Shown one piece after another: positions 1,771-63,941 of a stretch of 64,000 bases of DNA. Made by a program: the position numbers and the translations under genes. Origin of the DNA: a bacterium (GTDB lineage Bacteria; Patescibacteriota; Minisyncoccia; Phycocordibacterales; UBA5272); the NCBI GenBank assembly GCA_027482685.1, contig JAIXVU010000008.1, positions 68,652 to 132,651 on the forward strand, given 5' to 3'. The stretch's first letter is position 1. Every line of letters begins with the position of its first letter. Under the pieces are notes generated by a model. It was not told where the DNA came from and did not search any database. It was given only the letters and a program-made list of their open reading frames with translations.

Positions 1771-3042
1771 TTATACTGTAAACTTAGAAATATTATAGAG
1801 GTCTTCGTTCTGCTCATCGCTCTTTACTTCATCAATCGATCTATCATCCCCACCAAAGGCTCCAGTATCATCGTCGCTTTCCATAATATCTATGTTCTCT
1901 GGATCTACGTTATCAAGCTCTATCGCTTCGCTAGAAGTTTGTATCGGCATCTCACTTGTAACTACAAGAGAACCCTGAACTGTTTCTTTTGGGATCTCAT
2001 GTACTATTTCTTGATGTCCAAGATGAGTGAACTCCATTGCGGTAACTGGTTTAACAGCTCGCGGACTTCCTCCTACCTCTTGTAATGTCTTCATGTCTTC
2101 ATCTTTTAACGTATCGAACATCCCCTTGTGAGTCTTCTGCTCTCCACCTTTTCTGATAGCAATAGATAGTGCGAGCAATTCCTCATGTGAAAAGTAGTCA
2201 ATCCAAATACGCCCACCTCGTTCTCGTGGCTCTATCTGTACGCGTGTGCCAAGTGTCTCTGCTAACTTCTCCTCCATATCGACAACCTCTGGTGTCATGA
2301 AGAGATCCTTCTTGCGAACTTTTTCAAATGCTATACGTCGTGCTATCTGCTCTGCCTCACGTACAGTCATCTTGCGCACCATCATTTCCTTAAAGAGTGT
2401 CATTTGTTCCTGTGGGCGATCAATGAGCATAAGCAGTGGTCGTGTATGTCCCTCTGTTATCTGACGCTTTGATAGTGCATCCAGTATATCTTGTGGAAGC
2501 ATGAGTATACGCACAGTGTTAGATACGTACTCACGACTCTTACCAACTTTTTTGCCAACTTCTGTCCAGTTGAGCTTGAACTCATCTGCAAGACGTTGGA
2601 ATGACTGTGCACGCTCTACAGCATTCAAGTCCTCACGTTGTAGATTCTCAATGATAGCAAGCTCAAGCTTCGCACGACTATCATCCCCCGTACGCACAAC
2701 GACAGGTACTTGGCTGATACCTGCGAGTTTAGAAGCACGCAATCTACGCTCTCCGGCAATGAGTTCATACTCTACTTTTATACTACCGTCAGGTAGATGC
2801 GTCTCTTGACGAGATACAACAAGTGGCTGTAGTACTCCGTACTGACGGATACTGTCTGATAGCTCGCGTAGTCTATCCTCGTCAAATTCTCGCCGTGGTT
2901 GATACGGGTTAGGTACTATCTTATCTGTCTCTATCCAAAAAATTGATGTTTCTACTTGTCCCATGATGTTTCTACTTCTTATGTTAGATGAGTATAGCAT
3001 GTGAGAACTATAACGCTGTAGATAAATAGTTGCGCGTGACAA
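1771..3042 (-). CDS. parB: ParB/Spo0J-family partition protein with a long acidic C-terminal tail; no ParA nearby. An alternative start is at 2964 (MGQVE).
   Basis: ParB N-domain motifs IVPNPYQPRREF and VLQPLVVSR. ELIAGERRLRASKLAGISQVPVVVR. HTH region KSREYVSNTVRILMLP. Confidence 0.85.
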   Translation of the reverse strand: MSRATIYLQRYSSHMLYSSNIRSRNIMGQVETSIFWIETDKIVPNPYQPRREFDEDRLRELSDSIRQYGVLQPLVVSRQETHLPDGSIKVEYELIAGERRLRASKLAGISQVPVVVRTGDDSRAKLELAIIENLQREDLNAVERAQSFQRLADEFKLNWTEVGKKVGKSREYVSNTVRILMLPQDILDALSKRQITEGHTRPLLMLIDRPQEQMTLFKEMMVRKMTVREAEQIARRIAFEKVRKKDLFMTPEVVDMEEKLAETLGTRVQIEPRERGGRIWIDYFSHEELLALSIAIRKGGEQKTHKGMFDTLKDEDMKTLQEVGGSPRAVKPVTAMEFTHLGHQEIVHEIPKETVQGSLVVTSEMPIQTSSEAIELDNVDPENIDIMESDDDTGAFGGDDRSIDEVKSDEQNEDLYNISKFTV

Positions 3043-3169
3043 GCGTGGCTTTCTGAACTATATAGATACTCACCTTATATTAAGAATATGTATAGAAAGA
3101 CTTGAACAAGTTGTTTAAATATAAAAAGAAAACTGCCCGAAGGAAGTTTCCTTTCAGACAGAGTCAATT

Positions 3170-3490
3170 CTAGAACTTCTTATTCCAAACCTTGATTGGT
3201 GGAGTAATCAATCGCGGAGATCCATGCCGATCAACAAGATCTCTACGAAGGATGCGCATATCGAGCACAATGGAATTTGGGTACCACAACTCAGCACCTT
3301 CACAGGTATCTCTAGTCATTCCAAGAATTACACAAGAGCCGATTGAATACTCAAAGTAAGAAATAAGCTTCGTATCCCCTTCGATTTGAGCTCCATCTTT
3401 CCAGACATCTTTTTTGGGGCAAAATGAAAGCTCTCTCGGAAAAACATTTATATCGCCTAGAAAAACGTGATCCCAAGTATCGGTAAGCAA
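3170..3490 (-). CDS. hypothetical protein. It overlaps other minus-strand ORFs in different frames at 3351-3669, so it may be a frameshifted or decaying gene.
   Basis: An ORF only. Three overlapping minus-strand frames cover 3170-3669. Confidence 0.25.
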   Translation of the reverse strand: MLTDTWDHVFLGDINVFPRELSFCPKKDVWKDGAQIEGDTKLISYFEYSIGSCVILGMTRDTCEGAELWYPNSIVLDMRILRRDLVDRHGSPRLITPPIKVWNKKF

Positions 3491-10539: not shown

Positions 10540-10575
10540 AAATGTATAACAAAAGAGCGACGCTGACAGGCGTCG
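10540..10575. terminator. bidirectional terminator (AGAGCGACGC-tgacag-GCGTCGCTCT). The same 26-nt palindrome recurs at 28178-28203.
   Basis: A perfect 10-bp stem with A/T runs on both sides. It sits between convergent genes 10045-10506 (+) and rpoD (-). Confidence 0.7.
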
Positions 10576-10607
10576 CTCTTTTCTATCATTACAATTTTGT
10601 TAGTTTC

Positions 10608-12014
10608 TTAATAATTTCTTAATCGTTCTGCTTTATCGTGACTTCGTATTTTTTCATGTACTTTTGCCTCAATCTGTCTGATACGCTCGCGTGTAACACC
10701 GAACTCCGCACCTACCTCTTCTAGTGTATGCATCACACCATCAAACTCACCTAATCCATTACGCATTTCTACTATCTTGCGTTCCTTCGGTGAAAGATCA
10801 TCTAGTATCTCGTTAATCTGATCTGCAAGTATTCGATGTGACGCTTCGGCGTCTGGTGAGAGTATCTTATCATCTGCGATAAATTCACCAAGTGTTGACT
10901 TGTCATCATCATCACCGATTGGCTTCTCAAGAGAAACAGTATCTTGGTTGATATTTTCTATAACGTGTATCTTCTCTACATCCACTCCCATCTCCATCGC
11001 AATTTCTTCTGCAAGCGGGTCGCGTCCAAGGTCCTGTGAGAGACGACGAACGACTTGCTTGTACTTAGCAATAGTTTCTACCATGTGCACAGGGATACGG
11101 ATAGTACGTGACTGATCAGCGAGTGCTCGTGTGATAGCTTGTCTAATCCACCATGTCGCATAGGTTGAGAACTTGAACCCCTTGTTCCAGTCGAACTTTT
11201 CTACTGCCTTAAATAGGCCGAGATTACCCTCTTGAATAAGATCAAGTAGTGTTAAGTCAGAACTACGTCCAACATATTTCTTTGCAATGGAAACAACAAG
11301 ACGAAGGTTAGCCTTTGCAAGTAATGCTGTTGCCTCTGGATCACCTTTTTCGATACGGACAGCAAGCTCACGCTCGTTATCCCCTGAGATGAGTGGGTAC
11401 TGACCAATCTCACGAAGGTACATCTGGATACTATCATGAGTACTATCACTGCCAGCAAGTTTGGTAAGGTCATCATCCATATCCAGAAGGTTACCTCCTT
11501 CTAGAATATCTATACCTGCACTTGATATCTTTTCATATAATTCTTCTAGATATAAAATATCCGTCTCGATTGTTGGAAAATAACGAATAATCTCATCATA
11601 TGTGATGAAACCACGCTCCTTACCTTTTGCAAGGAGTTCTTCTTCGTTCTGATCTCTTGTAAGAACTTTCTTAGTCTTTACTTCGGCTTTTGGCTTACTT
11701 GGGCCAGTCTTTATGGTAAATGCCTTTGGCTTGTACTTAGGCTTTACTTCAACCTTTGGAGAAACTTTCTTGACTGGTTGTTTCTTGGTTACAGCTTTCT
11801 TGGTTGTAACTGTTTTAGATTTTGATATGACTTTCGTTGTCTTCTTTGAGGATACCTTTGTCACAGCTTGTGACTTCTTGGTGAGAGGGGTAGAGGTTGA
11901 CTTTGTTTTTTTGACTACCTTTACCGCCTTCTTAGCTTTTGCTTTTGTTGCTACGCTTTTCGCTGTAGTTTTTTTCTGTACACTCTTTGATTTTGAAGAA
12001 ACTTTTTTCGCCAT
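10608..12014 (-). CDS. rpoD: RNA polymerase sigma-70 factor with a ~110-aa Lys/Ala-rich histone-H1-like N-terminal extension
   Basis: Region 2 [18 protein letters not shown]...[16 protein letters not shown]. Region 4 [21 protein letters not shown]-terminus [29 protein letters not shown]. Confidence 0.92.
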
Positions 12015-12056: not shown

Positions 12057-13694
12057 CTAGGCCTGTTGTCCACTTTTTATGTGAGCATCTAATTCTTTCA
12101 AAATTGATTCATGGTTTGCAGAGGGGTCACGTAGAGATTGCTTGAGCTCTTCTGTTTTTTCTTTATGTACTTCACGTTTACATGTTGCAAGGAGATCGTC
12201 AAAATATTTTGCCTTATCACCTACAACCTTTTCCTCAAGACTAAACATTTCTTCTTGAATAATAGCTTCTGGGAACTGATGTATATCTATGCCAAGCTGT
12301 ATAAGTCTCTCATCGTTAAGAGCGTCAATAAGTGTCGCAAGAGCTACTATCTCACGGGCTAGCCGTTCTTTCTTTGGGACATATACAGTAGTTGCTTGTT
12401 CTTCTTCTCTTGCTACCGTTTGACCACGAAGTAACTCTTCTGTAAGAATAGTCTCAGGAATAGAAGCGCGCGATGCGATGACTTTTATGAAATGAGCTTT
12501 ATCTATTGGAGACTGAAGAGCACGAACAAATGGGAGTACGTCGGATACAATCTTCTGTCCTTGGATGCGTGTGTCAGCCTCTGTCTCTATTATTTTTGCA
12601 AGCATCAGCTCTATTACATGACGCTTGTTCTTTACAGCATCTATCCATGCATTCGGATTTTCTTTAATTAAATCTGCTGGGTCCTTCGTTCCGATGTCAC
12701 CGACGACATAGACATCAAGCCCACCAAGGAGGCACAGTAACGCAGTCTTCTTAAGAGCGTTTTGTCCTGCTGTATCTGTATCAAATGAAAGTATAACCGT
12801 ATCGCAAAAACGTTTAATAATATGTATGTGTTCATCAGTAAACGCCGTACCTGAAACTGCAACAGTATTATGAACACCTGCTTGATAGCTCATACAGAGA
12901 TCCATCTGCCCTTCTACCACAATAACTGCCTTGCTCTGTGACATTTCTTTCTTTGCAGTATCATAACCAAATAATATCTTGGACTTATGGTAAAGCGCAG
13001 TCTCTGGTGTGTTAACATACTTCCCTTGCGCAACCGTCGGGTCAACGAATTGTGGCATGATACGACCTGAATATCCAACTGTTGCGCCGGATACATTTCG
13101 TATCGGGAACATGATACGCCCGCGAAATCTATCATACCAACCTTTAACCTTTCCTTGTGCATCAAGTGCTTGTATCATCACGCCGGACAATTCCATCTCC
13201 TCTGGGGTATACCCCTTCCCTGCCAGATATGTGAATAGATCTCGCCATTCATTACGAGCATATCCTATGTGGAATGTCTTAATAGTTTCTTCTGTTAGTC
13301 CACGATCAATCAGATACTGTTTCGCTTCTGGGCTTTTGACGAGATTATTTTCAAAATGCTCTGTTGCGTCTTTTAGAAGTGTGATGAGTCTCGTGTCTTC
13401 TTTATTCTTCTGTGAGTCTATAAGCGAGACCCCTGCACGATCTGCTAGTATCTTGAGTGCTTCATAGAACGGAATGTTTTCAATTTTCTCCACGAAAGAA
13501 AAGATGTCACCGGACGCTTGGCATCCGAAACAATGAAAACTCTTTCGTTCAGGTGAAACATAAAATGATGGCGTACGTTCGTTATGGAATGGACACCTCG
13601 CACGAAATTGCGCTCCTGACTTCTCAAGCCTGATATACGTAGATACAACATCAACAATAGAGAGATTTTCCTTCACCTGGTCCTTGGGGTTCAT
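12057..13694 (-). CDS. dnaG: DNA primase
   Basis: Zinc-binding CPFHNERTPSFYV...FHCFGCQASGD. TOPRIM VIVVEGQMD. Classic dnaG-rpoD adjacency. Confidence 0.9.
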   Translation of the reverse strand: MNPKDQVKENLSIVDVVSTYIRLEKSGAQFRARCPFHNERTPSFYVSPERKSFHCFGCQASGDIFSFVEKIENIPFYEALKILADRAGVSLIDSQKNKEDTRLITLLKDATEHFENNLVKSPEAKQYLIDRGLTEETIKTFHIGYARNEWRDLFTYLAGKGYTPEEMELSGVMIQALDAQGKVKGWYDRFRGRIMFPIRNVSGATVGYSGRIMPQFVDPTVAQGKYVNTPETALYHKSKILFGYDTAKKEMSQSKAVIVVEGQMDLCMSYQAGVHNTVAVSGTAFTDEHIHIIKRFCDTVILSFDTDTAGQNALKKTALLCLLGGLDVYVVGDIGTKDPADLIKENPNAWIDAVKNKRHVIELMLAKIIETEADTRIQGQKIVSDVLPFVRALQSPIDKAHFIKVIASRASIPETILTEELLRGQTVAREEEQATTVYVPKKERLAREIVALATLIDALNDERLIQLGIDIHQFPEAIIQEEMFSLEEKVVGDKAKYFDDLLATCKREVHKEKTEELKQSLRDPSANHESILKELDAHIKSGQQA

Positions 13695-13805
13695 GTAGAC
13701 AGTGTATAGTTTATGGTCAATAGTTGCTAGTTGACAAAATTTCTATTCTAAAGCAAAAAGCCAACCTTGCAAGTCGGCTTTTCAAAGTAATGCGACATGT
13801 ACACA

Positions 13806-14003
13806 TTACTCGTGCTTCTTATATACACGGCATGCATAGCCTTTGTATTTCTTTTTTGCATCTGGTGACGCAATCTTTCGTTCACCAGCTGTCACGCACG
13901 CAGCATGAGACTTGAGCCCTGCCACGGTCTCGTAATGAAGCGTCACCATCGGGCCAGACTCAGCATGGAGACTATAGAGCAGTACCAAAACAATTACTTG
14001 CAT
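13806..14003 (-). CDS. small hypothetical protein (65 aa) with a basic C-terminus
   Basis: GGAG 7 nt upstream of the ATG. Sits between the rpoC terminator and the dnaG upstream region. No recognisable family. Confidence 0.25.
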   Translation of the reverse strand: MQVIVLVLLYSLHAESGPMVTLHYETVAGLKSHAACVTAGERKIASPDAKKKYKGYACRVYKKHE

Positions 14004-14066
14004 AAAGAACTCCAGTTAGTTGGCCAAGACACATCTATAGAATATTCCTTGTTTTTTAAAAATGCA

Positions 14067-14098
14067 AAAGTGGCGCCTACGGCGCCACTTTTGTTTTC
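14067..14098. terminator. GC-palindrome terminator (AAAGTGGCGCC-tac-GGCGCCACTTT), probably ending rpoBC
   Basis: A perfect stem. TTTTGCATTTTT on the minus side. Its core GGCGCCTACGGCGCC is identical to the hairpin at 57296-57324. Confidence 0.7.
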
Positions 14099-14118
14099 TA
14101 TTTGTATTTCAGTAAACG

Positions 14119-14243
14119 TCAGCCGGTTTCAAAATTGTTTTAGATGCGAGGAGCTTAAAAATTTTTGCACGAGACGTACTAGGTTGTACGTTGAGTGCAA
14201 AAATTTCGTAGCGACAAAGCAGATGAAATAATTTTGAAAGCGG
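14119..14243 (-). ncRNA. conserved structured 3'-trailer element, copy 1, immediately after the rpoC stop; its paralog is at 28225-28357
   Basis: About 125 nt alignable to the second copy. Nested inverted repeats AAATTTTTGCAC/GTGCAAAAATTT and ACGTAC/GTACGT. A compensatory change in the outer stem between copies. Confidence 0.45.
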
Positions 14244-17200
14244 TTATGCTTTCTTGTTACGAAGACCTGTACCAGCTGGAATAAGGCGTCCAATAATAAC
14301 ATTCTCCTTCAGCCCTCGTAGCTGATCAACCTGTCCACGAGTTGATGCTGTGATGAGCACTCTGGTCGTGTTCTGGAATGATGCACTTGATAGCCATGAG
14401 TCAGTTGATAGAGCAACATCGGTGATACCAAGTACAAGATGTCTACCTTTTGCTTCTGTTTGACCAAGAGCTTTTACACGAGAGTTTTCAGCGCGGAAGG
14501 TTGACACTTCAACAACATCTGACTGAGTAAAACGTGTATCTCCTGGATTAGTTATCTTCACACGTCCAAACATTTGCTTGATGATAACTTCGACGTGCTT
14601 ACGAGAGATAGACGCACCTTGAAGTTCGTAGACTTTGTTGATTTCAGCTACAATGTACTCTTCTGCAACTTCCTTACCAGCAAAGTTGAAGAGCTCATCA
14701 ATATCTGCTGATCCATCTGTTAACATCTGACCCTTCTTAACCTTATCTCCAATCTTTACGATTGATTGACGACGGAATGGTACCGTGTACTCAACTTGCT
14801 TACCACTCTTATTACCCTTTGATCCATCATCATCTGCTAGTAGTACAATAACTTTTTCTTTCCCTTCATCACGCATACCGATTATCTCTCCACTTTCGTG
14901 AGCAATAATTGCTGGGTTCTTAGGCATACGACGCTCGAAGATTTCTTCGACACGAGGAAGACCTTGTGTAATGTCTGCTCCTGCAACACCTCCTGAGTGG
15001 AAGGTACGCATCGTAAGCTGTGTTCCTGGTTCTCCGATTGCTTGCGCTGCAACGATACCGACTGCCTCACCTAGATCTACCTTCTTGTTACGCCCCATAT
15101 CAAGACCATAACACTTCTGACAGATTCCATGTAGTGACTGACACATAAGTGGAGAAAATACATTAACCTCGACAATACCCGCTCCTTCTATTGCAAGCGC
15201 ATCGTCTTTACTGAGAAGGTGATTCTTCTTAAAGAGCACTTCGCCATTAACATTGATATCATCAGCGATAACACGTCCACGAATATTCTTAGAGATTGGC
15301 ACCTCAATACCGAGAGCATTCTCTTTACGAATAAGCTTGCTTTCTTTTGTTCCACAATCAATTTCAGTAATGATTGCATCTTGTGCCACATCCACGAGAC
15401 GTCGTGTAAGATATCCTGCTTGCGCTGTCTTAAGCGCGGTATCTGAGTTACCCTTACGAGCACCATAAGTAGTGATGAAGTACTCAAGTGGAGTTAGTCC
15501 TTCCTTGTATGATGAGATAACTGGGAAGTCCAAGTTACGTCCTGAGTTGTTAACGATAATACCCTTCATACCAGCCATCTGAATAATCTGTGCCATTGTT
15601 CCACGGGCACCGGATGTGATGAGGTCATACACTGAACCATGTTTAGCTATTGTTGCAGGAAGAGCCTTCTCGATACGTGCACGCACTCCTTGCCATACTT
15701 CAATAACTTTTTCATAACGTTCTTCTTGTGAAAGAAGACCCTCTTCATAATCACTTTCAATACGCGCAGCTTTTGACCAACCTTCAGCAACAAGTTCTTT
15801 CTTCTCTTTAGGAATGGTTACAGCGTCGATATTCCATGTTGTACCTGATACTGTCGCATACTTATACCCGAAGGCTTTTATCTTATCTATAACAGAAGGC
15901 GCAGTCTCAAGACCGTAAGTCAAGATAACTTCATCAATAATCGCTGTCATCTTTTTGATTGTTACTTCTTCATTAATATATGGGAAGTCACTTGGGAAGA
16001 CAGAGTTGAAAAGTAGCCGTCCAACGGTTGTCTCGAAACGCTCACCATTAAACTTCGCATACTTCTCCTTATCAGTTGGCATGACAGAAATCTTGGCACG
16101 GAAAGAAACAACACCGAAGTCATACGCTGTGATAGCTTCATTAGGTGCTTCAAAATATTTTCCTTCACCTTTCTCTCCATCAATCTGCTTAGTCATCCAG
16201 TACGCACCGAGCACCATATCCATACGAGGGTTAACAATAGAATCTCCTGATCCAGGCTTAAGGAGGTTACGGTTAGCTGCCATTAGTGTACGAGCTTCCT
16301 CTTGTGCTGCAACTGAAAGTGGTAAGTGTACTGCCATCTGGTCACCATCGAAGTCCGCGTTAAACGCCTGACATACAAGCGGATGAAGCTGGATAGCGTT
16401 ACCTTCGATAAGCTTCGGATTAAATGCTTGGATACCAAGGCGGTGGAGTGTAGGAGCACGGTTAAGAAGTACATATTTTCCGTCAATACATTCTTCAAGA
16501 ATTGCCCACACTTCAGGTATTCCGTCTTCAATCAATTTGTTGGCACCACGAATGTTAAACGCCAGCTCTCTTTCAAGAAGCTTAGAAATAACAAACGGCT
16601 TGAAGAGCTCAAGTGCCATATGCTTAGGTAGACCACACTCATTAAGTGAGAGCGATGGACCAACCACAATAACAGAACGTGCTGAATAATCTACACGCTT
16701 ACCGAGTAGGTTACCACGGAGAAGCCCTTGCTTACCTTTCAAGTTATCAGAGAGTGACTTGAGTTGACGCTTCTGTGATTGACTCATAACAGCATCTTGC
16801 CCATGACGTGCTGAGTTATCAATAAGCGCATCAACTGCTTCTTGCAAGATACGCTTCTCGTTACGGAGAATAACATCAGGCGCACCAATTTCCATCAACT
16901 TCTTAAGACGATTGTTACGATTAATCACTCGACGATAAAGATCGTTCACATCTGATGCTGCATAGCGTCCACCTTCAAGAGCAACCATAGGGCGAATACC
17001 TGGAGGAATAACTGGAATAACAGTCATAAACATCCACTCAGGACGAATACCTGCATTTTGGAAAGCACGCACAAGTGAGAGTCTCTTCTCAGCCTTCTCA
17101 CGCTCAAGAGCTCCAGCTTTCTCAAGTTGAACAACTATCTTTCCTTCAAGATCTTTAAGATCAATTGTCTTGAATATCTCATAGATAGCCTCTGCTCCGA

Positions 17201-17837
17201 TACCTGCTTCGAAACATGTCCCATACTTCATTGCAAAGCGGTGATAGGTAAGCTCATCGAAAATCTTCCATGGTTTGATCTCTTCTATCTCTTTCTTTGT
17301 TGCAGTGAGGAGTTCGCGGAGCTTATCCTGAGTTTTTTCATCACTTGCTGACTTTACCTTTGCCTTAAACTCACTGTCTAGATTAGCAAGTATCTCTTCC
17401 TTGGCAGCTTGGTTAACTGACTTGATAACATATCCAGCAAAGTAAATAACTTTCTCAACATCTCCAACTGGCTGAGCGAGGATAAGAGCGATACGTGATG
17501 GTACGGTACGAAGGAACCAAATATGAGCAACAGGAGACGCAAGTTCAATATGCCCCATACGTTCACGACGAACGATAGATTTTGTTACTTCTACACCACA
17601 CTTCTCACAGATGATACCCTTGTAACGAATACGCTTGTACTTTCCACAGTAACATTCGAAATCCTTTTCTGGACCGAATATTCTTTCATCAAAAAGACCG
17701 TAACGCTCGGAACGTCCTGTACGGTAGTTGATAGTCTCTGGCTTTGTAACTTCACCGTATGACCAAGAACGAACTGCTTCTGGAGATGCAATTTTAATCG
17801 CGAGGCTATCAAAATTATTTGTATCGATTGTTTTCAT
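14244..17837 (-). CDS. rpoC: DNA-directed RNA polymerase subunit beta'
   Basis: 1197 aa. Catalytic NADFDGDQMAVH. Zinc-binding CYCGKYKRIRYKGIICEKCGVEV. Confidence 0.97.
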   Translation of the reverse strand: MKTIDTNNFDSLAIKIASPEAVRSWSYGEVTKPETINYRTGRSERYGLFDERIFGPEKDFECYCGKYKRIRYKGIICEKCGVEVTKSIVRRERMGHIELASPVAHIWFLRTVPSRIALILAQPVGDVEKVIYFAGYVIKSVNQAAKEEILANLDSEFKAKVKSASDEKTQDKLRELLTATKKEIEEIKPWKIFDELTYHRFAMKYGTCFEAGIGAEAIYEIFKTIDLKDLEGKIVVQLEKAGALEREKAEKRLSLVRAFQNAGIRPEWMFMTVIPVIPPGIRPMVALEGGRYAASDVNDLYRRVINRNNRLKKLMEIGAPDVILRNEKRILQEAVDALIDNSARHGQDAVMSQSQKRQLKSLSDNLKGKQGLLRGNLLGKRVDYSARSVIVVGPSLSLNECGLPKHMALELFKPFVISKLLERELAFNIRGANKLIEDGIPEVWAILEECIDGKYVLLNRAPTLHRLGIQAFNPKLIEGNAIQLHPLVCQAFNADFDGDQMAVHLPLSVAAQEEARTLMAANRNLLKPGSGDSIVNPRMDMVLGAYWMTKQIDGEKGEGKYFEAPNEAITAYDFGVVSFRAKISVMPTDKEKYAKFNGERFETTVGRLLFNSVFPSDFPYINEEVTIKKMTAIIDEVILTYGLETAPSVIDKIKAFGYKYATVSGTTWNIDAVTIPKEKKELVAEGWSKAARIESDYEEGLLSQEERYEKVIEVWQGVRARIEKALPATIAKHGSVYDLITSGARGTMAQIIQMAGMKGIIVNNSGRNLDFPVISSYKEGLTPLEYFITTYGARKGNSDTALKTAQAGYLTRRLVDVAQDAIITEIDCGTKESKLIRKENALGIEVPISKNIRGRVIADDINVNGEVLFKKNHLLSKDDALAIEGAGIVEVNVFSPLMCQSLHGICQKCYGLDMGRNKKVDLGEAVGIVAAQAIGEPGTQLTMRTFHSGGVAGADITQGLPRVEEIFERRMPKNPAIIAHESGEIIGMRDEGKEKVIVLLADDDGSKGNKSGKQVEYTVPFRRQSIVKIGDKVKKGQMLTDGSADIDELFNFAGKEVAEEYIVAEINKVYELQGASISRKHVEVIIKQMFGRVKITNPGDTRFTQSDVVEVSTFRAENSRVKALGQTEAKGRHLVLGITDVALSTDSWLSSASFQNTTRVLITASTRGQVDQLRGLKENVIIGRLIPAGTGLRNKKA

Positions 17838-17855: not shown

Positions 17856-20800
17856 TTATAGAGACGTCTCACCTAGTAATTGTTCTGTGTATCCCTCTGG
17901 CTTAACAGGGTCTACATCAAGCGATAGTCCACGGAGTGTATTTAACATCACTGTAAACGACGCTGGTGTGTTAGGCTCTTGAACATCTTCACCTTTTATA
18001 ATGCTATCAAATGCAGCAGAGCGTCCTACGATGTCGTCTGACTTTACTGTTAGCATCTCACGTAAGATATGTGATGCGCCGTATCCTTCAAGCGCCCATA
18101 CTTCCATTTCCCCAAAGCGCTGACCTCCACCTTGAGCCTTTCCACCAAGTGGTTGCTGAGTGATAAGTGAGTATGGACCAATCGAACGCATGTGAATCTT
18201 ATCTTCAACCATGTGGTGAAGTTTCATAATATACATCACACCAACTGCAGTCTCTTGATTAAACGCTTCACCTGTTCGTCCATCATAGAGCTGAATAGTT
18301 CCTGATGCTGAATACCCTGCTTTTACAAGTTCTTCTTTTATTTCAGCATCACTTGCTCCTTGGAATGATGGAACAATAGCTTGATATCCAAGAGAATCTG
18401 CTGCAAGACCGAGGTGCATCTCGAGAATCTGTCCAAGGTTCATACGTGATGGCACACCAAGCGGTGTAAGAATGATATCTATAGGAGTCCCATCTGCTGC
18501 AAACGGCATTTCTTCTACTGGGAGGATTGTTGAGATAACACCTTTGTTACCGTGACGGCCTGCAAGCTTATCTCCAACTGAGATGTTACGCACTTGCGCA
18601 ACTTCAATATGAATACGCTTGATGATACCACTTTCAAGGTGATCCCCTCGTTCACGAGAAAATACTTTTACTCCGATGATACGTCCACGCTTACCATGAT
18701 CAAGACGAAGTGATGAGTCCTTCACATCACGCACCTTCTCACCGAAGATTGAACGAAGAAGTCTCTCTTCTGGGGTAAGTTCTGTCTCACCCTTTGGTGT
18801 AATCTTACCTACGAGAATATCTCCTGGGCGAACTTCTGCTCCGATACGGATAATACCGTCCTCATCTAAGTTCTTAAGCTTATTCTCTCCAACGTTTGGA
18901 ATATCATGTGTTGTGACTTCTGCTCCTAACTTCGTATCACGTACATTACATACGAACTCTTCGATGTGAATAGATGAAAACTTACTTTCCTTAACGAGTC
19001 TCTCTGAGAGAATGATCGCATCTTCGTAGTTCGCACCATTCCATGACATGAATGCCACACGAATGTTATGCCCAAGTGCAATCTGTCCATTATCTGATGT
19101 TGCAGCGTCCGCTAGTACTTGGCCTTTCTTTACTTTATCACCAAGTGACACAATAGGTCTCTGGTGGAAAAGGTTAAAGGCGTTTGTTCGAGCAAAGTTA
19201 ATGAGTGGGTACTCATATTCTTTTTTATCAGCCTTAAGTACTATCTTCTTAGCATCGACATACTTAATCTCTCCTGCTTCATCAGCTATAACAAGACGTC
19301 CAATATGCTTTGCAGCAACCCCTTCCATACCTGTAGCTACAAGAGGCGCTTCTGGGCACATAAGTGGAACTGCTTGCTTTTGCATGTTTGAACCCATGAG
19401 TGCACGTGATGCGTCATCGTGCTCGAGGAATGGAATCATAGAGGTTGCAACAGAGAATGCTTGGTTAGTTGCTACGTCGATGAACTCGACTTCACTCTTA
19501 GGTGCAAGTCCTGGCTGACCAACACGACGGATCTCAATTTCATCCCCTAGTAGATTTCCTTTCTCGTCATACTTATTCCCAGCATGCGCGATAATGTGAC
19601 GCTCTTCTTCAAGTGCGTTCATGTATACTATCTCTTTTGTAATCTTTCCGTCCTTTACTTTTACATATGGAGTCTCGATGATACCGAAATCATTGATACG
19701 CGCATAGTTAGAAAGACGAAGGATAAGACCGATGTTCGGACCTTCTGGGGTGTGGATAGGACATACACGACCATAGTGTGATGTGTGCACGTCACGAACT
19801 TCAAATCCAGCACGCTCACGTGTAAGACCTCCAGGACCAAGGGCAGAGAGAGTACGAAGGTGTTCAACTTCAGCGAGCAAGTTCTCTTGGTTCATGAACT
19901 GTGAGAGCTGGTTAGTAGTAAAGAACTCTTTGATACGAGCCTGTAGTGGACGCTGGTTGATGATAGCAATAGGAAGCGTGGTATCTGTATCAATAACAGA
20001 CATCTTGTCTTGGATGTTACGCTTCATCTGCATCATACCTGTACGAATCTTCTGTGCCATCATTTCACCTACATAACGAACGCGACGTGATCCAAGGTGG
20101 TCAATATCATCCTCTTCTGCGTTAGGATCATTGTTTAGTTCAACAATGTGTTTAATGATATCCACCATATCTTCCTTAGATAGTGTTCGGCGTTGTGCTT
20201 CTTTATCTTTAGGGTCAATAGACTTACCAAAACGCTTGTTGAAACGAAAACGCCCAACAGGAGAAAGGTCATAACGCTCAGGAGACACGATAGAGTCAAT
20301 GTATTCCTTTGCGTTTTCTGGAGTAGCGAGATCACCATCACGAAGTCTCTTGTAGATCTCTATATATGCATCATGAAGTGTCTTTACTTCATCACGCTCA
20401 ACTAAAGCAGAAATAATTGGTGAAGCTACTTCATGATCATTAAACGCTGCTTTTATTTGTTCATCAGTAGTGAATCCAAGCACGCGAAGAAGTGCAACGA
20501 CAGAGAACTTACGCTTCTTGTCGATACGAACATATACTCCACCGTCAGCTTCTGTCCCAAGTTCAATCCATACACCACGAGATGGAATGATTTTTGCACC
20601 GAAGTATCTTTTTCCTTTTGATTCTTCTGAGTCAAAGAATACACCGAATGATCGAGCAAGTTGTGGTACAACTACACGCTCAACACCGTTAATGATGAAT
20701 GTTCCATGAATAGTCATCAGTGGAAAATCCGCCATGAATATTTCCTGCTCTTTTGTAGTATTTAATATTTTGTTGGTGAGCTTCACACGAGCACGTAGTG

Positions 20801-21074
20801 GTGCCTCATAGGTAAGCTTGTTCTCCTTTGCGTACACTTCATCGTACTTTGGAGCTGAGAGTTCAAAAGAGATGAACTCGAGATCGAATTTCTTCTCAGA
20901 GTAATCACGAAGTGGTGAGAACTCACGGAAAATTTCTACTATGCCTTTTTCTGTAAGGTCCTTGTATGAAAGAATCTGGTTTTCAACTAAGTTAGGAATA
21001 TCAGTCAGTGGTGTACTGTACTTTGCAAACGTTTTTTGTGGGCGAGCACCGGCGGTTAGATATGTTTTTGGCAT
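17856..21074 (-). CDS. rpoB: DNA-directed RNA polymerase subunit beta. Start taken as MPKTY (ATG at 21074); the ORF extends to a GTG at 21092.
   Basis: About 1072 aa. N-terminus ...IPNLVENQILSY. Conserved beta-subunit blocks throughout. rpoB-rpoC order. Confidence 0.97.
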   Translation of the reverse strand: MPKTYLTAGARPQKTFAKYSTPLTDIPNLVENQILSYKDLTEKGIVEIFREFSPLRDYSEKKFDLEFISFELSAPKYDEVYAKENKLTYEAPLRARVKLTNKILNTTKEQEIFMADFPLMTIHGTFIINGVERVVVPQLARSFGVFFDSEESKGKRYFGAKIIPSRGVWIELGTEADGGVYVRIDKKRKFSVVALLRVLGFTTDEQIKAAFNDHEVASPIISALVERDEVKTLHDAYIEIYKRLRDGDLATPENAKEYIDSIVSPERYDLSPVGRFRFNKRFGKSIDPKDKEAQRRTLSKEDMVDIIKHIVELNNDPNAEEDDIDHLGSRRVRYVGEMMAQKIRTGMMQMKRNIQDKMSVIDTDTTLPIAIINQRPLQARIKEFFTTNQLSQFMNQENLLAEVEHLRTLSALGPGGLTRERAGFEVRDVHTSHYGRVCPIHTPEGPNIGLILRLSNYARINDFGIIETPYVKVKDGKITKEIVYMNALEEERHIIAHAGNKYDEKGNLLGDEIEIRRVGQPGLAPKSEVEFIDVATNQAFSVATSMIPFLEHDDASRALMGSNMQKQAVPLMCPEAPLVATGMEGVAAKHIGRLVIADEAGEIKYVDAKKIVLKADKKEYEYPLINFARTNAFNLFHQRPIVSLGDKVKKGQVLADAATSDNGQIALGHNIRVAFMSWNGANYEDAIILSERLVKESKFSSIHIEEFVCNVRDTKLGAEVTTHDIPNVGENKLKNLDEDGIIRIGAEVRPGDILVGKITPKGETELTPEERLLRSIFGEKVRDVKDSSLRLDHGKRGRIIGVKVFSRERGDHLESGIIKRIHIEVAQVRNISVGDKLAGRHGNKGVISTILPVEEMPFAADGTPIDIILTPLGVPSRMNLGQILEMHLGLAADSLGYQAIVPSFQGASDAEIKEELVKAGYSASGTIQLYDGRTGEAFNQETAVGVMYIMKLHHMVEDKIHMRSIGPYSLITQQPLGGKAQGGGQRFGEMEVWALEGYGASHILREMLTVKSDDIVGRSAAFDSIIKGEDVQEPNTPASFTVMLNTLRGLSLDVDPVKPEGYTEQLLGETSL

Positions 21075-21336
21075 AAAGACAGATGTTGCCACACGGCTCT
21101 CTATATCCGTGTGACGTTACGTTACAATAAACTTTTATAAAAATTTTCTCTCATTCCCCAGTTGGTTCGAATAACCCAAAGTATTCGATACGTATGCAAA
21201 CCTTTCTCTCTATTTTTCGTAACTTAATCGTGGGTCAATAGTTGGATTATAATACCAGTAAATGAAGAAAATAGCAAATTCTATTAAAGACAATTATTAT
21301 TTTAATACGATAATATTTTATATGGGGTTTTGTAGG

Positions 21337-21526
21337 ACGATACGACAGATCTTTCGTATTAAATTTTTAAGTTTTTTCTTTTTAACCCCGCCCTTTCAAA
21401 GCACGGTACTTTTTTGCTAAAAAGTACCTCTGTTCCGCGCCGTCGCGCTTCCACGCGGCTTTAAAATGGCGGGGTTGGGTGTGGTGGATACAAAAGAGAA
21501 AGCCCGCCGAAGCGGGCTTTCTCTTA
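21337..21526 (-). ncRNA. conserved ~185-nt structured element, copy 1, upstream of rpoB. It begins with a bidirectional terminator palindrome. Its paralog is at 29929-30114.
   Basis: About 90% identical to the second copy. Three helices show compensatory changes between copies. A G-U wobble is tolerated only on the minus-strand transcript. Confidence 0.5.
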
Positions 21527-27484: not shown

Positions 27485-28024
27485 TTAGTTAGACTTGAGA
27501 TACGCGAGCATGGTATCAGCGTCTGATACTTCAAACGGGTCGTTTGGAACATTATCACCAAATCCTGGCTCTACGAAGAGTTTCTTGATAACCCCGTCTT
27601 CTACTACCATAGAGTATCTCCATGATCTGTCTCCGAAGCCTAGGTTTTCTTTCTTAACAAGCATACCCATACCTTTTGTAAACTCGCCATTTCCGTCTGG
27701 AAGAAAATGAACTTTTTCAAGTCCTAGATTCTTCTTCCACTGGAACATAACGAATGCATCGTTAACTGAGAGACATATAACTTCATCTACTCCGAGTGCT
27801 TTTATCTCGTCATACTTTGCTTCATACCCTGGGGCATGTGTTGATGAACATGTTGGAGTAAAGGCTCCAGGAAGAGAAAATACTACGACTTTCTTTCCTT
27901 TGAAAATCTCATCTGTGGTAACATCTTGCCATCGGAATGGATTACCCCCTCCGATAGATTCATCACGCACGCGAGTCTTAAACGTAATCTGTGGAACTGA
28001 TGCTCCTTCTGTTAGTTGTGACAT
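27485..28024 (-). CDS. peroxiredoxin, Prx5-like subfamily
   Basis: [24 protein letters not shown] (peroxidatic Cys in a FTPTCS context). DAFVMFQW. Confidence 0.85.
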
Positions 28025-28177
28025 ATGTTGTAGTAATTAGTTATTAGTAATTGGTAATTAGAAAATACAAACTTCAAATTTCAATTCTATTCTTTTGCAG
28101 AACATTCATACCTGACAATTCTGCTATACATCTATAGTATCGTATCTTCTCGACACTTGCAAAAGAAATAGAGCGAC

Positions 28178-28203
28178 GCCTGTCAGCGTCGCTCTATTTC
28201 TTT
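28178..28203. terminator. GC-palindrome terminator, an exact inverted copy of the 10544-10569 element
   Basis: AGAGCGACGC-ctgtca-GCGTCGCTCT. Follows the helicase 3' element in minus orientation. Confidence 0.65.
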
Positions 28204-28224
28204 TGCATATTTACCAAATTCCTT

Positions 28225-28357
28225 CAGCGGTGGACGTTTCAAAAGATAAGAATTTTGGATGAGATGCGAGGCGAATAAAATTTTTGTGACTAAGGCGTAC
28301 ATCTAGTACGACGCATGGAACAAAAATTTTATTCAACGAAGCAGGTCACCAAAATTG
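28225..28357 (-). ncRNA. conserved structured 3'-trailer element, copy 2, immediately after the DEAD-box helicase stop
   Basis: Alignable to 14119-14243. Shared blocks GTTTCAAAA, GATGCGAGG, AAAATTTTTG, CGTAC..TAG..TACG, CAAAAATTT, AAGCAG. Confidence 0.45.
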
Positions 28358-29698
28358 TTATCTTTTTGGGACGAACGTAAGAGCATGGCCAAGTTTAGTC
28401 CCACGTCCTGTTCGCCCGATACGGTGAATATATGTCTCGTAGTTATTTGGAATATCGTAATTAACAACAAGAGATATATCGTTGATATCTAGTCCGCGCG
28501 CTGCAACATCAGTCGCAATCACAACTTGCACCTTACCAGAAGCGAGTGCCTTCACAGCACGCTCACGTTCACGATTATGCATATCACCATGTAGTGCGAG
28601 AGCCTTGAACCCACGTTTGGTAAGCTCATCAGTAAGTCCGTCAACATGACGCTTCATCTCACGGAAGATAAGAACCTTAGAGTATTCAGGCTTATTCAAA
28701 ATATCATGGAGAGCATCCACCTTTTCTGCATCAGTGGTTACACGTATTACATCCTGCATAACAGATGATGCGGTATCGCGTGACTTAATAGATACAGTCA
28801 CAGGGTCAACGAGGAAATCTGTACAGAGTCTCTTAATCTCTGGACTAAATGTTGCAGAGAAGAAAAGCCCTTGCTTGTCCTTTGGCATAGCACCTAAGAT
28901 TGAACGCATATCATCAATGAATCCCATGTCTAGCATACGGTCTGCTTCATCAAGTACGATACTATCGAAGAAACTCATGTTGATCTTCCTACGTTCGATA
29001 AGATCCTTCACACGTCCTGGTGTTCCGATAACGGCGTTAACGCCTAGCTCAAGCTCTTTTATCTGTCGCATGATTGGTGAACCACCAACACAAGATACAG
29101 AGAAGAGCTTCATCCCGCGTGTGAACGCTACGAACTCTGCCTCAACCTGCATAGCAAGTTCACGAGTTGGAGTAAGTACCATCATCTTGTGATCTTTATC
29201 AGCTACGAGCTTGTTGATGAGTGGAATTAAAAATGCTGCTGTCTTCCCTGTTCCGGTAGATGCAATACCTATCACATCTTTTCCTGTGAGTACTTGTGGG
29301 ATTGCTTGGTCTTGTATTGGAGATGGATTGATGAGACCTTTTGCAGTTAAGTTCGCAGAGAGTAGCTCATGAATGTTGAAATCCGTGAACTTGTGTGTTG
29401 GAGTGTAGTTGTTGGTTTCTGCGATACCAACCTCTTTGTTAATGAAAAGCTTCTCGTCGATATAGTCCTTCTTAAATGATCGCTTAGCGTTAAATGGGCG
29501 AGGTGATGAAGCGCCACGAGAAAATCCACCACGTGAACCTCCGCGTGGTGCATATCCTCCACGTGAGCCTCCGTCACGTGATGATGAACCGCGTGGTGAA
29601 TAGCCTCCTTCGCGAGGAGATGATGAGTAAGAACGAGGTGAACGTGTGCGAGAATCGGTACGTGAGTCAGAAGACCCACCAGTTGTTATGGTATACAT
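28358..29698 (-). CDS. DEAD-box ATP-dependent RNA helicase with an N-terminal RG/RS-rich disordered extension. The ORF extends to 29734.
   Basis: Q-motif through motif VI: GKDVIGIASTGTGKT, DEAD (VLDEADRML), SAT, HRIGRTGR. Confidence 0.9.
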   Translation of the reverse strand: MYTITTGGSSDSRTDSRTRSPRSYSSSPREGGYSPRGSSSRDGGSRGGYAPRGGSRGGFSRGASSPRPFNAKRSFKKDYIDEKLFINKEVGIAETNNYTPTHKFTDFNIHELLSANLTAKGLINPSPIQDQAIPQVLTGKDVIGIASTGTGKTAAFLIPLINKLVADKDHKMMVLTPTRELAMQVEAEFVAFTRGMKLFSVSCVGGSPIMRQIKELELGVNAVIGTPGRVKDLIERRKINMSFFDSIVLDEADRMLDMGFIDDMRSILGAMPKDKQGLFFSATFSPEIKRLCTDFLVDPVTVSIKSRDTASSVMQDVIRVTTDAEKVDALHDILNKPEYSKVLIFREMKRHVDGLTDELTKRGFKALALHGDMHNRERERAVKALASGKVQVVIATDVAARGLDINDISLVVNYDIPNNYETYIHRIGRTGRGTKLGHALTFVPKR

Positions 29699-29928
29699 AT
29701 GTATTTGTAGGCAAGAACACGCGAAATAACGCAATGATTCTTATTTAGTTAATTTCATTATTTGCGCTTACCTTCAGTAAAAAGAGAAGGGTTGTATGGT
29801 TAACCACAACGCGTCAAATCAGAAAAACCTTTTGCCTGACTACACAGTGATATCCATAAAGGAAATAATACAACTATTATAGCAAACTATAGACTTTTTG
29901 TCAAACAAACTTTAATTACCATAGTGGC

Positions 29929-30114
29929 ACGATACGTAAAATATTTTGTATTAAAATTTTTAAGTTTTTTCTATTACCCTCCACCCTTTCAAAGCACAGT
30001 ACTTTTTTGCTAAAAAGTACCTCTGTTCCGCGCCGTCGCGCTTCCACGCGGCTTTGAAATGGTGGAGTTGGTTTGGTTACTACAAATGAAAAAGCCCACC
30101 GAGGTGGCTTTTGA
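29929..30114 (-). ncRNA. conserved ~185-nt structured element, copy 2, upstream of the DEAD-box helicase
   Basis: See copy 1. Includes terminator palindrome AAAAGCCCACC-gag-GTGGGCTTTT. Confidence 0.5.
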
Positions 30115-38605: not shown

Positions 38606-38643
38606 AGAAAAGCGACATCTTCAGGTGTCGCTTTTCTTTTACT
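38606..38643. terminator. bidirectional terminator AGCGACA-tcttcagg-TGTCGCT + TTTTCTTTT
   Basis: A perfect 7-bp stem with a T-run. Confidence 0.6.
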
Positions 38644-62678: not shown

Positions 62679-62845
62679 AGCAATACTTATAATACTACCG
62701 TATCTTAAGCATAATGATAATCAAAAAAGACAGCTACTATACTAAGAAGTATATATAGAGAAGACAAGATTCTCTTATATATCACTCATCCACCGCTCAA
62801 CAAAAATGGCCACCTGGGTTCTAGGGTGGCGCATTTTTGTACAAG

Positions 62846-62932
62846 CGGAGAAAGTGGGATTCGAACCCACGGGGCTAATAAAAGCCCGACGGTTTAGTAA
62901 ACCGTTGATTTAAACCACTCATCCATTTCTCC
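62846..62932 (-). tRNA. type-II tRNA, Ser-like (G73 discriminator, long variable arm), with anticodon loop TTACTAA, i.e. apparent anticodon ACT
   Basis: Reverse complement GGAGAAATGGATGAGTGGTTTAAATCAACGGTTTACTAAACCGTCGGGCTTTTATTAGCCCCGTGGGTTCGAATCCCACTTTCTCCG. Confidence 0.6.
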
Positions 62933-63850: not shown

Positions 63851-63853
63851 TTG

Positions 63854-63941
63854 CGGAGACGATGAGATTCGAACTCATGAAGGTATTACTACCTTGCCTC
63901 GTTAGCAGTGAGGTGCCTTCGACCAGCTCAGCCACGTCTCC
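63854..63941 (-). tRNA. tRNA-Ser(GCT), type II
   Basis: Reverse complement GGAGACGTGGCTGAGCTGGTCGAAGGCACCTCACTGCTAACGAGGCAAGGTAGTAATACCTTCATGAGTTCGAATCTCATCGTCTCCG. Confidence 0.8.

Follow-up and report, generated by a model that had tools for sequence, protein, structure and literature searches.

The window, a 64-kb stretch of bacterial DNA with a GC content of 40.8%, carries nearly all of its genes on the minus strand. It derives from a CPR bacterium in the Paceibacteria/Parcubacteria group, and the RpoC proteins closest to its own belong to named Candidatus Paceibacterota, Nomurabacteria or Parcubacteria. The genes that concern us here are the following.

10608-12014, minus strand: rpoD
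12057-13694, minus strand: dnaG
14244-17837, minus strand: rpoC
17856-21092, minus strand: rpoB
27485-28024, minus strand: redoxin gene
28358-29734, minus strand: DEAD-box helicase

Because rpoC and the DEAD-box helicase are on the minus strand, segments 14119-14243 and 28225-28357 both lie 3' of genes, where the original prediction had placed a pair of homologous, structured trailers. Both segments were present as described, and all of the sequence blocks attributed to them (GTTTCAAAA, GATGCGAGG, AAAATTTTTG, CGTAC..GTACG, CAAAAATTT and AGCAG) were found. The best local alignment of the two segments scored 33, versus 17.7 ± 2.6 (maximum 28) for 500 dinucleotide shuffles (z = 5.8); since the alignment beat every shuffle, the similarity is not limited to A/T runs. 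The compensatory change in the outer stem, GCAC/GTGC to GT/AC, was also recovered, and it proved to be one of many such changes once relatives were added. The nested ACGTAC/GTACGT-type hairpin lies at 14174-14191 in copy 1, and downstream of each copy, A and T tracts border a GC-rich palindrome (14064-14094 and 28158-28207). Results showed that both copies fold as one long interrupted hairpin, with z values of −7.2 to −11.2 relative to shuffles. Two boundaries were corrected: the hairpin of copy 1 begins at the base directly after the rpoC TAA stop, and that of copy 2 reaches into the helicase coding end, spanning 28241-28366. A covariance model of the element, run unfiltered, placed only these two copies in the 64-kb window. 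Their parts are as follows.

14123..14243, minus strand: copy 1, the whole interrupted hairpin 3' of rpoC (inverted repeats, fold and model match)
14224-14243 with 14123-14142, minus strand: outer stem arms of copy 1
About 14159-14170 with 14196-14207, minus strand: middle stem of copy 1
14244..14246, minus strand: rpoC stop codon TAA, whose TA (14245-14246) abuts the element
14214..14222, minus strand: conserved 5' junction motif CTGCTTTGT of copy 1
14174..14191, minus strand: apical hairpin ACGTAC-loop-GTACGT of copy 1 (seed alignment)
14142..14151, minus strand: conserved 3' junction motif CCTCGCATCT of copy 1
14096..14122, minus strand: short trailer from hairpin to terminator, copy 1
14064..14094, no strand assigned: intrinsic-terminator-like bidirectional hairpin ending the rpoBC unit, separate from the repeat
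28241..28366, minus strand: copy 2, the whole hairpin 3' of the DEAD-box helicase (fold, inverted repeats and model)
28336-28344 and 28262-28271, minus strand: copy 2 motifs CTGCTTCGT and CCTCGCATCT, respectively
28158..28207, no strand assigned: terminator-like perfect palindrome with 22-nt arms, downstream of copy 2

The model matched copy 1 with 85.7 bits (14133-14232) and the core of copy 2 with 88.2 bits (28253-28354). The 5' motif of copy 1 contributes a TGC that pairs with GCA in the 3' motif; the middle one of these pairs is G-C, A-T or T-A, covarying across copies. The GTA and TAC of the apical hairpin were invariant in the seed alignment, and the pairs flanking them covary. The body of copy 2 (28249-28358) is bracketed by TA at 28359-28360, within the TAA stop (28358-28360), and by TA at 28247-28248. 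Outside these dinucleotides are the palindromic flanks AAAAGA (28361-28366, coding) and TCTTTT (28241-28246), and the outer stem thereby takes in the last codons and the stop of the helicase (AAAAGATAA pairs with TTATCTTTT). At each of the two stop codons, that of rpoC included, the third base of TAA can be counted as the element's first base, which leaves TA in front of it. The 3' dinucleotide of copy 1 is TG (14120-14121), and TA occupies this place in the orthologous copies of loci L003, L008 and L027. The TA of the rpoC stop and the TG/TA at the other end may be a target duplication. The trailer at 14096-14122 contains CTGACGTTTAC, conserved as CCGGCTRACGTT in orthologous rpoC copies, and may be a 3' extension of the element. 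A coding reading was rejected: the 108-aa ORF on the plus strand (13905-14231) had no Pfam match and runs through the terminator.

Three terminator hairpins in the window, located after rpoD (10551-10582), after the helicase (28167-28198) and after a third gene (38606-38637), share AAAAGAGCGACGC...GCGTCGCTCTTTT and are 69–75% identical to the reference copy, as if the terminators were themselves a repeated module. Between the rpoC terminator and dnaG is a gap of ~370 nt (13695-14063), in which no Rfam match was found; it holds a 65-aa ORF of public assemblies (13806-14003, minus strand) without a Pfam match, and relatives carry different small ORFs there. In the classical rpsU-dnaG-rpoD operon, this position is that of rpsU. 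Elsewhere in the window, ARAGORN reported a tRNA-Ser with anticodon ACT (62845-62932) near a tRNA-Ser(GCT) (63853-63941); a Ser anticodon with an unmodified A34 is unusual.

The helicase ... rpoB-rpoC ... dnaG-rpoD synteny was common to relatives identified by RpoC homology and to 80 genome representatives (the best of these stood at 90% against the window, and the count covers loci of relatives). A covariance model, R1, was built from a seed of 23 copies and detected 40 copies in 1.64 Mb around rpoC from 82 related loci. These Paceibacteria copies follow rpoC, rpoD, the helicase (twice in tandem in L014) and unrelated genes, and some lie upstream of rpoB. Others are reversed and precede the start of the helicase or dnaG by about 20 nt, including within the helicase 5' UTR. 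A co-oriented gene precedes 30 of the 40 copies, mostly with 0–17 nt between stop codon and element, a count that orthologous copies inflate.

Occupancy of the rpoC site was patchy, with the element present in 10 of the 24 informative close relatives (RpoC identity at least 79%). The rpoD and helicase sites were filled in few species and empty in others; L019, for example, is empty with the same helicase coding end, and in this comparison the relatives are too diverged to define exact boundaries. The rpoC site of L013 contains a decayed remnant. The helicase copy of the window is 81% identical to the rpoC copy of L004, versus 70% to the window's own rpoC copy.

Some relatives showed distinctive arrangements. 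L061, a distant, Paceibacteria-like locus whose RpoC is 64% identical, carries six copies within 23.5 kb (222-335, 2305-2405, 3010-3112, 13651-13752, 14013-14112 and 17480-17579; element GC 0.50–0.60), which occupy many of its intergenic regions. One of the six (17480) follows the rpoD terminator instead of preceding it. In L003, the helicase is flanked by copies at both ends (coordinates 1622-1650, 1823-1922, 1943-3280 and 3285-3385). The reversed copy is in the helicase 5' UTR, 3' of a sigma70-type promoter with a 12/12 match, and ends 21 nt before the start codon; the forward copy directly follows the helicase stop codon. L005 and L027 likewise have a reversed 5' UTR copy. A third small repeat, ..GATTTCAAAAGAYTGATTACAATCTAAGAAATCGGGAG.., was seen in the loops of terminator hairpins in L015 (3409-3453, 3' of the helicase) and L014 (13796-13840, 3' of rpoC), and in L021 (13129-13166) it directly adjoins a copy of the hairpin element.

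The alignment of copies revealed a consensus in which structure and fixed nucleotides alternate. Read on the rpoC sense strand from the outside in, it consists of a variable outer stem, A-nCT-N-C, TTYGTT and a covarying stem of 14–19 bp, then TCAAYGTAC, a loop and GTACRTCTC, followed by the return arm of the stem, GCCTC, G-N'-A-TCT and the return arm of the outer stem. The spacing of the motif blocks is near constant (33–35 and 19–21 nt between the three blocks), and the fixed junction motifs are CTNCTTYGTT, CAAYGTAC..GTACRTCTC and GCCTCGNATCT. The 3-bp helix TNC/GN'A switches among G-C, A-T and T-A and was Watson-Crick in 151 of 153 copies. In the seed alignment, 91.7% of cells paired, versus 65.8% with shuffled partners, and the covariation score was 0.671, versus 0.183 shuffled; none of 500 shuffles reached 0.671, and sliding the partners by 1–3 columns gave scores of 0.18 or less. 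The outer arms were complementary in every copy, and in Paceibacteria their sequence differed between copies. The base composition of the stems follows genome GC, and the junction nucleotides stay fixed.

A degenerate three-block pattern, which recovers about 48% of known copies and is expected to give ~90 chance matches per 2x10^12 nt, detected at least 120 stretches in a scan of metagenomes. Few of the stretches listed were left unconfirmed by the model. Such confirmation was not automatic: in viral contigs, which served as a negative control, the pattern matched five times and the model confirmed no match. Plasmid and phage collections gave no blastn match. Contig GC was 0.35–0.74 among the matches listed, and most of the confirmed copies were on contigs of 64–74% GC. 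One high-GC copy, for example, reads AAAGGCCCATCTGCTTCGTTGGCGCC...TCAACGTAC...GTACGCCTC...GGCGCCGCCTCGCATCTGGACCTTTT, with its junction motifs unchanged. On the high-GC contig L119, a neighbouring peptide deformylase was closest to named Candidatus Rokuibacteriota/Methylomirabilota, and on a contig of 49% GC with two copies, DnaK was 94% identical to that of a Thermodesulfobacteriota MAG. Judged for the latter two by one neighbouring protein per contig, the family appears to be present in at least three phyla: Patescibacteria, Methylomirabilota and Thermodesulfobacteriota.

The covariance-model search proposed with the original prediction thus found the further copies it had looked for, 40 near rpoC of Paceibacteria and at least 132 (87 + 45) in metagenome stretches. 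What had been suggested was a structured 3' trailer belonging to the same two transcription units. Its sharing, its structure and its stem changes all stood; its restriction to those units did not, because a family that has spread to this many copies, with patchy occupancy of the rpoC site, is not private to two transcription units. The family is multi-copy and dispersed.

We looked for signs of mobility at the ends of the copies. The cleanest pair, in L153, consists of two copies located 4.9 kb apart that are 98% identical over exactly 153 bp, have unrelated flanks, and show sharp, asymmetric ends (TAGCAGGATGCTGAAAAA ... TTTTTCAGCAAACT). A near-identical pair of this kind shows recent duplication or spread of a discrete unit; no target-site duplication was visible in it. 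The unit extends beyond the core in the high-GC copies, which have the ends (C)TAGCAGGCTGCTGA...TCAGCAKCCTGCTAG in common. CTAG occurred at the upstream boundary of 21 and the downstream boundary of 23 of 54 high-GC copies, versus a background of 0.44 per kb, and neighbouring ORFs often end at the TAG of the boundary CTAG. TA/TA brackets the helicase copy of the window and the copies of L003, and TA/TG the rpoC copy of the window. Because TA and CTAG are palindromic, these signals are not separable from stem ends or simple palindromy. Decayed, tandem and near-identical copies exist, and the presence of the element at a site differs between close relatives.

We considered it slightly more probable than not that each segment is a copy of a small interspersed repeat (about 100–150 bp) that codes for nothing and folds as a hairpin, and that this repeat is a mobile, non-autonomous element of MITE/REP-like kind, intergenic in Paceibacteria and in at least two other phyla. 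Several observations speak against this reading. Only two copies are present in 64 kb of the window genome. Variation is greatest at the termini and conservation strongest at the internal junctions, which reverses the pattern of an element whose terminal inverted repeats are bound by a transposase, and the L153 pair shows no visible duplication. The junction motifs have been retained across three phyla while the stems were adapted to genome GC, which suggests long-standing purifying selection, something that a purely selfish element does not require. No transposase recurred near copies in an ORF clustering around 87 copies (80 loci), which returned only ordinary metabolic families. The one IS630-type insertion sequence seen (L123, 522-1678; terminal inverted repeat GTGTCCCGAGTCTGA, TA duplication) is inserted exactly in the CTAG that borders a high-GC copy on its 5' side; it was rejected as the cognate insertion sequence, its ends being unrelated to the hairpin element. 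Finally, the co-orientation of 30 of the 40 Paceibacteria copies with the upstream gene hints at RNA-level selection or directional insertion.

Under the mobile-repeat reading, the element would land at or beside the TA of a stop codon (TAA in the window; CTAG ends ~40% of the high-GC copies), and a gene receiving it there would keep its stop codon. Because the element lies between stop codon and terminator, it should be part of both mRNAs. That is, the rpoBC and helicase messages would end with the element as their last ~125 nt, a passively co-transcribed, interrupted hairpin of ~55 bp, and any effects on 3'-end stability, RNase III cleavage or termination-proximal ribosomes would be secondary. 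The fixed, strand-asymmetric junctions may be the recognition site of a putative trans-acting protein, either a mobilising enzyme or a host factor, and such a protein would act on the folded strand complementary to the rpoC sense strand.

The question of which strand folds was approached through pairing energies and mismatches. In all 40 copies, the complement of the rpoC sense strand (the plus strand of the window) gave the more stable fold, with an average advantage of 11 kcal/mol. When G.T and A.C were counted symmetrically along the entire arms, the two were near balance (125 versus 149), which indicates that loop composition accounts for much of the energy gap. The junction positions offered a more local view: in the consensus, those of the sense strand are nearly all pyrimidines and hence purines on the complement. 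In 160 copies with a clean apical stem, many of them related and the counts therefore not independent, the two pairs next to the apical stem were either Watson-Crick (49 and 43) or sense-strand A.C (96 and 114), corresponding to complement-strand G.U; sense-strand G.U never occurred at these two pairs. The next two positions were C.T (159/160) and T.C (117/160), equivalent to tandem A.G/G.A on the complement. This junction pattern is what a folded RNA or single-stranded DNA (ssDNA) on the complementary strand would look like. Because the reversed copies of L003 and L005 lie between the 12/12 promoter and the helicase start, complement-form RNA should be made there, in the 5' UTR.

These observations allow a broader idea, which we put forward tentatively and regard as rather improbable. 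The conserved core could be a widely distributed structured module, active on the complementary strand as RNA or ssDNA, with a platform of G.A and G.U pairs for recognition or catalysis, that has long been carried in at least three phyla. It might be the substrate of a hairpin-specific mobilisation enzyme, or a new protein-binding or self-processing RNA riding on a mobile unit.

A related and unlikely alternative holds that the active molecule is simply the complementary strand, as RNA or folded ssDNA with tandem G.A and G.U pairs. The sense-in-mRNA orientation would then be selected against, the rpoC and helicase copies would represent a tolerated 'silent' orientation, and the active form would be the reversed copies in helicase 5' UTRs or the ssDNA intermediate of an HUH-type enzyme (REP/RAYT, IS200/IS605). 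The uniform advantage in folding energy, the G.U and tandem A.G/G.A pairs next to the apical stem, the RNA expected from the reversed copies of L003 and L005, and the asymmetric ends of the L153 copies with no duplication visible are all as this alternative would have them. Set against it are the near balance of the whole-arm count and the relatedness of the copies. No promoter-like site drives the plus strand at either window copy, and GC skew indicates that the plus strand is not the lagging-strand template, unlike in IS200/IS605-type elements. Nor was a Y1/HUH or RAYT gene seen among the neighbours within 10-kb flanks.

Less likely still, in our judgement, is that the element is a sense-strand, cis-acting RNA: a protein-binding or RNase-processing hairpin of the 3' (sometimes 5') UTR that tunes the stability, termination or translation termination of the housekeeping mRNAs rpoBC, rpoD, dnaG and helicase, and that was repeatedly recruited rather than selfishly spread. 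The strong covariation with fixed junction nucleotides and the conservation of the junction motifs across phyla would fit such a role, as would the mostly sense-oriented placement of Paceibacteria copies 0–17 nt past a stop codon and the position of both window copies between stop codon and terminator. The distribution of the element argues otherwise. Orthologous sites are patchily occupied among relatives with about 90% identical RpoC, the place relative to the terminator varies (after the rpoD terminator in L061), and both orientations are found. Moreover, the sense strand has mismatched pyrimidines at the junctions and A.C at two conserved positions. The association with housekeeping genes is partly an artefact because sampling was centred on rpoC. 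The proposal of a 3'-UTR-derived small RNA or stability element was weakened, the best pairing signature being on the complement of the mRNA strand.

The same two units were also said to carry a common 5' element. This is a 118-nt repeat (21361-21478 and 29954-30071, minus strand; copies 92% identical) that is located, in front of rpoB and of the helicase alike, between the terminator of the upstream gene and the promoter-like site, and it recurs upstream of the helicase in L015 (~1720-1900), L027 (~480-660) and L030 (~1850-2040). Its structure comprises a long outer stem that covaries, an inner hairpin that is variable, an invariant ACTTTTTAGCAAAAAAGTA hairpin and then an A-rich tract; it had no Rfam match, and it is a separate structured family. 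Because the sigma70-like promoters of rpoB and the helicase are downstream of it (a 12/12 match lies at 29904-29876), the 5' element is probably outside the same transcripts, contrary to the idea that both elements share one. Although both operons of the window genome carry both elements, we regard it as extremely improbable that they pair in an RNase III-type long-range stem or act jointly on the same transcript: complementarity between them did not extend beyond A/T runs, which made up the longest complementary words (duplex z −1.2 and +0.3 versus shuffles), the promoter-like sites are located 3' of the 5' elements, and relatives carry one element without the other, the two not travelling together.

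A single segment is ordinary in kind, being a copy of a dispersed, non-autonomous hairpin repeat. The family itself is not ordinary. Rfam 15 gave nothing at the gathering threshold in the window or in 12 metagenome loci, and at E ≤ 10 the two window copies had only generic hairpin matches far below threshold; no relevant literature was found on repeats, MITEs or structured RNAs of Parcubacteria, Patescibacteria or Rokubacteria. We are thus dealing with a family for which neither a paper nor an Rfam entry was found, in a lineage of the CPR and in at least two unrelated phyla. Small palindromic repeats are hardly described in CPR/Patescibacteria, whose genomes are tiny and densely packed, so that any retained non-coding element is notable. 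Internal junctions fixed in three phyla, together with variable ends and stems that range from ~35% to ~70% GC, imply a conserved partner molecule, and the element could still be a functional module as RNA or ssDNA. The family explains numerous conserved "orphan" hairpins and unusual gene ends in MAG annotation, among them stop codons that the edge of an element supplies. It may also serve as a marker for strain-level variation and as a candidate source of new hairpin-recognising enzymes or RNA motifs.

The family was compared with several known kinds of structured element. The consensus lacked the defining motifs of, or gave no Rfam match to, SRP RNA, 6S, Y RNA, the K-turn and known ribozymes, and these were rejected. 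The attC sites of integrons are likewise imperfect palindromes directly 3' of an ORF with a variable complementary central stem and fixed unpaired bases, and there too the strand antisense to the ORF folds better. Unlike in integrons, the neighbours here (rpoC, rpoD, helicase) are not cassettes, and there is no integrase or array. An attC identity was rejected on account of these core-gene neighbours and of ends without RYYYAAC/GTTRRRY boxes.

The palindromic elements of Rickettsia (RPE) offer a likeness in size and setting: they are palindromic repeats of 105–146 bp in a reduced, host-dependent genome that lie at or in gene ends and can add codons. They differ in that RPE are in-frame insertions within genes and are known only from Rickettsia, whereas the present family lies at or after the stop codon and crosses phyla.

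REP elements near stop codons affect mRNA 3' ends in E. coli. The REP/BIME elements and REPINs, with their RAYT (Y1/HUH) partner, resemble the present family as structured extragenic palindromes that occur in 3' UTRs, have been kept for a long time and show strand asymmetry; recognition in those systems needs a folded hairpin plus a few fixed nucleotides. A REP is 20–40 nt long with a GTAG/CTAC head, and a REPIN is two inverted units, whereas here there is a single hairpin of at least 100 nt whose two arms carry different fixed motifs (CTTYGTT versus GCCTCG). The consensus shows no 20–40 nt palindrome with a GTAG head, and membership in REP/REPIN was therefore rejected.

Bacterial MITEs are described as small (<200 bp), non-coding and multi-copy, with conserved terminal inverted repeats, TA termini and duplication, a cognate insertion sequence and a stem-loop transcript (PMC2229807). 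The present units are 100–153 bp long, the one overlapping ORF has no Pfam match, and the copies are dispersed, 40 plus at least 132 of them; a stem-loop transcript is predicted by the folds (z −7.2 to −11.2). No insertion sequence with matching ends was found near the copies in 80 loci. The closest parallels are the Correia/NEMIS elements of Neisseria and the RUP elements of Streptococcus pneumoniae, which are 100–200 bp long, lack an ORF and are intergenic near gene ends (PMC2229807). As predicted here, their transcript is one long stem-loop formed by pairing of the 5' and 3' ends, and TA (CTAG) stands at many termini (PMC2229807). Tandem and decayed copies, presence/absence polymorphism and, as predicted here, co-transcription with neighbours are further common ground (PMC2229807). 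In contrast to Correia/NEMIS/RUP, our family varies at its termini and is conserved at its internal junctions, with no duplication in the L153 pair and no cognate insertion sequence found. Moreover, known MITE families are lineage-specific, whereas the same core recurs here in what appear to be three phyla, its stems re-tuned from ~35% to ~70% GC.
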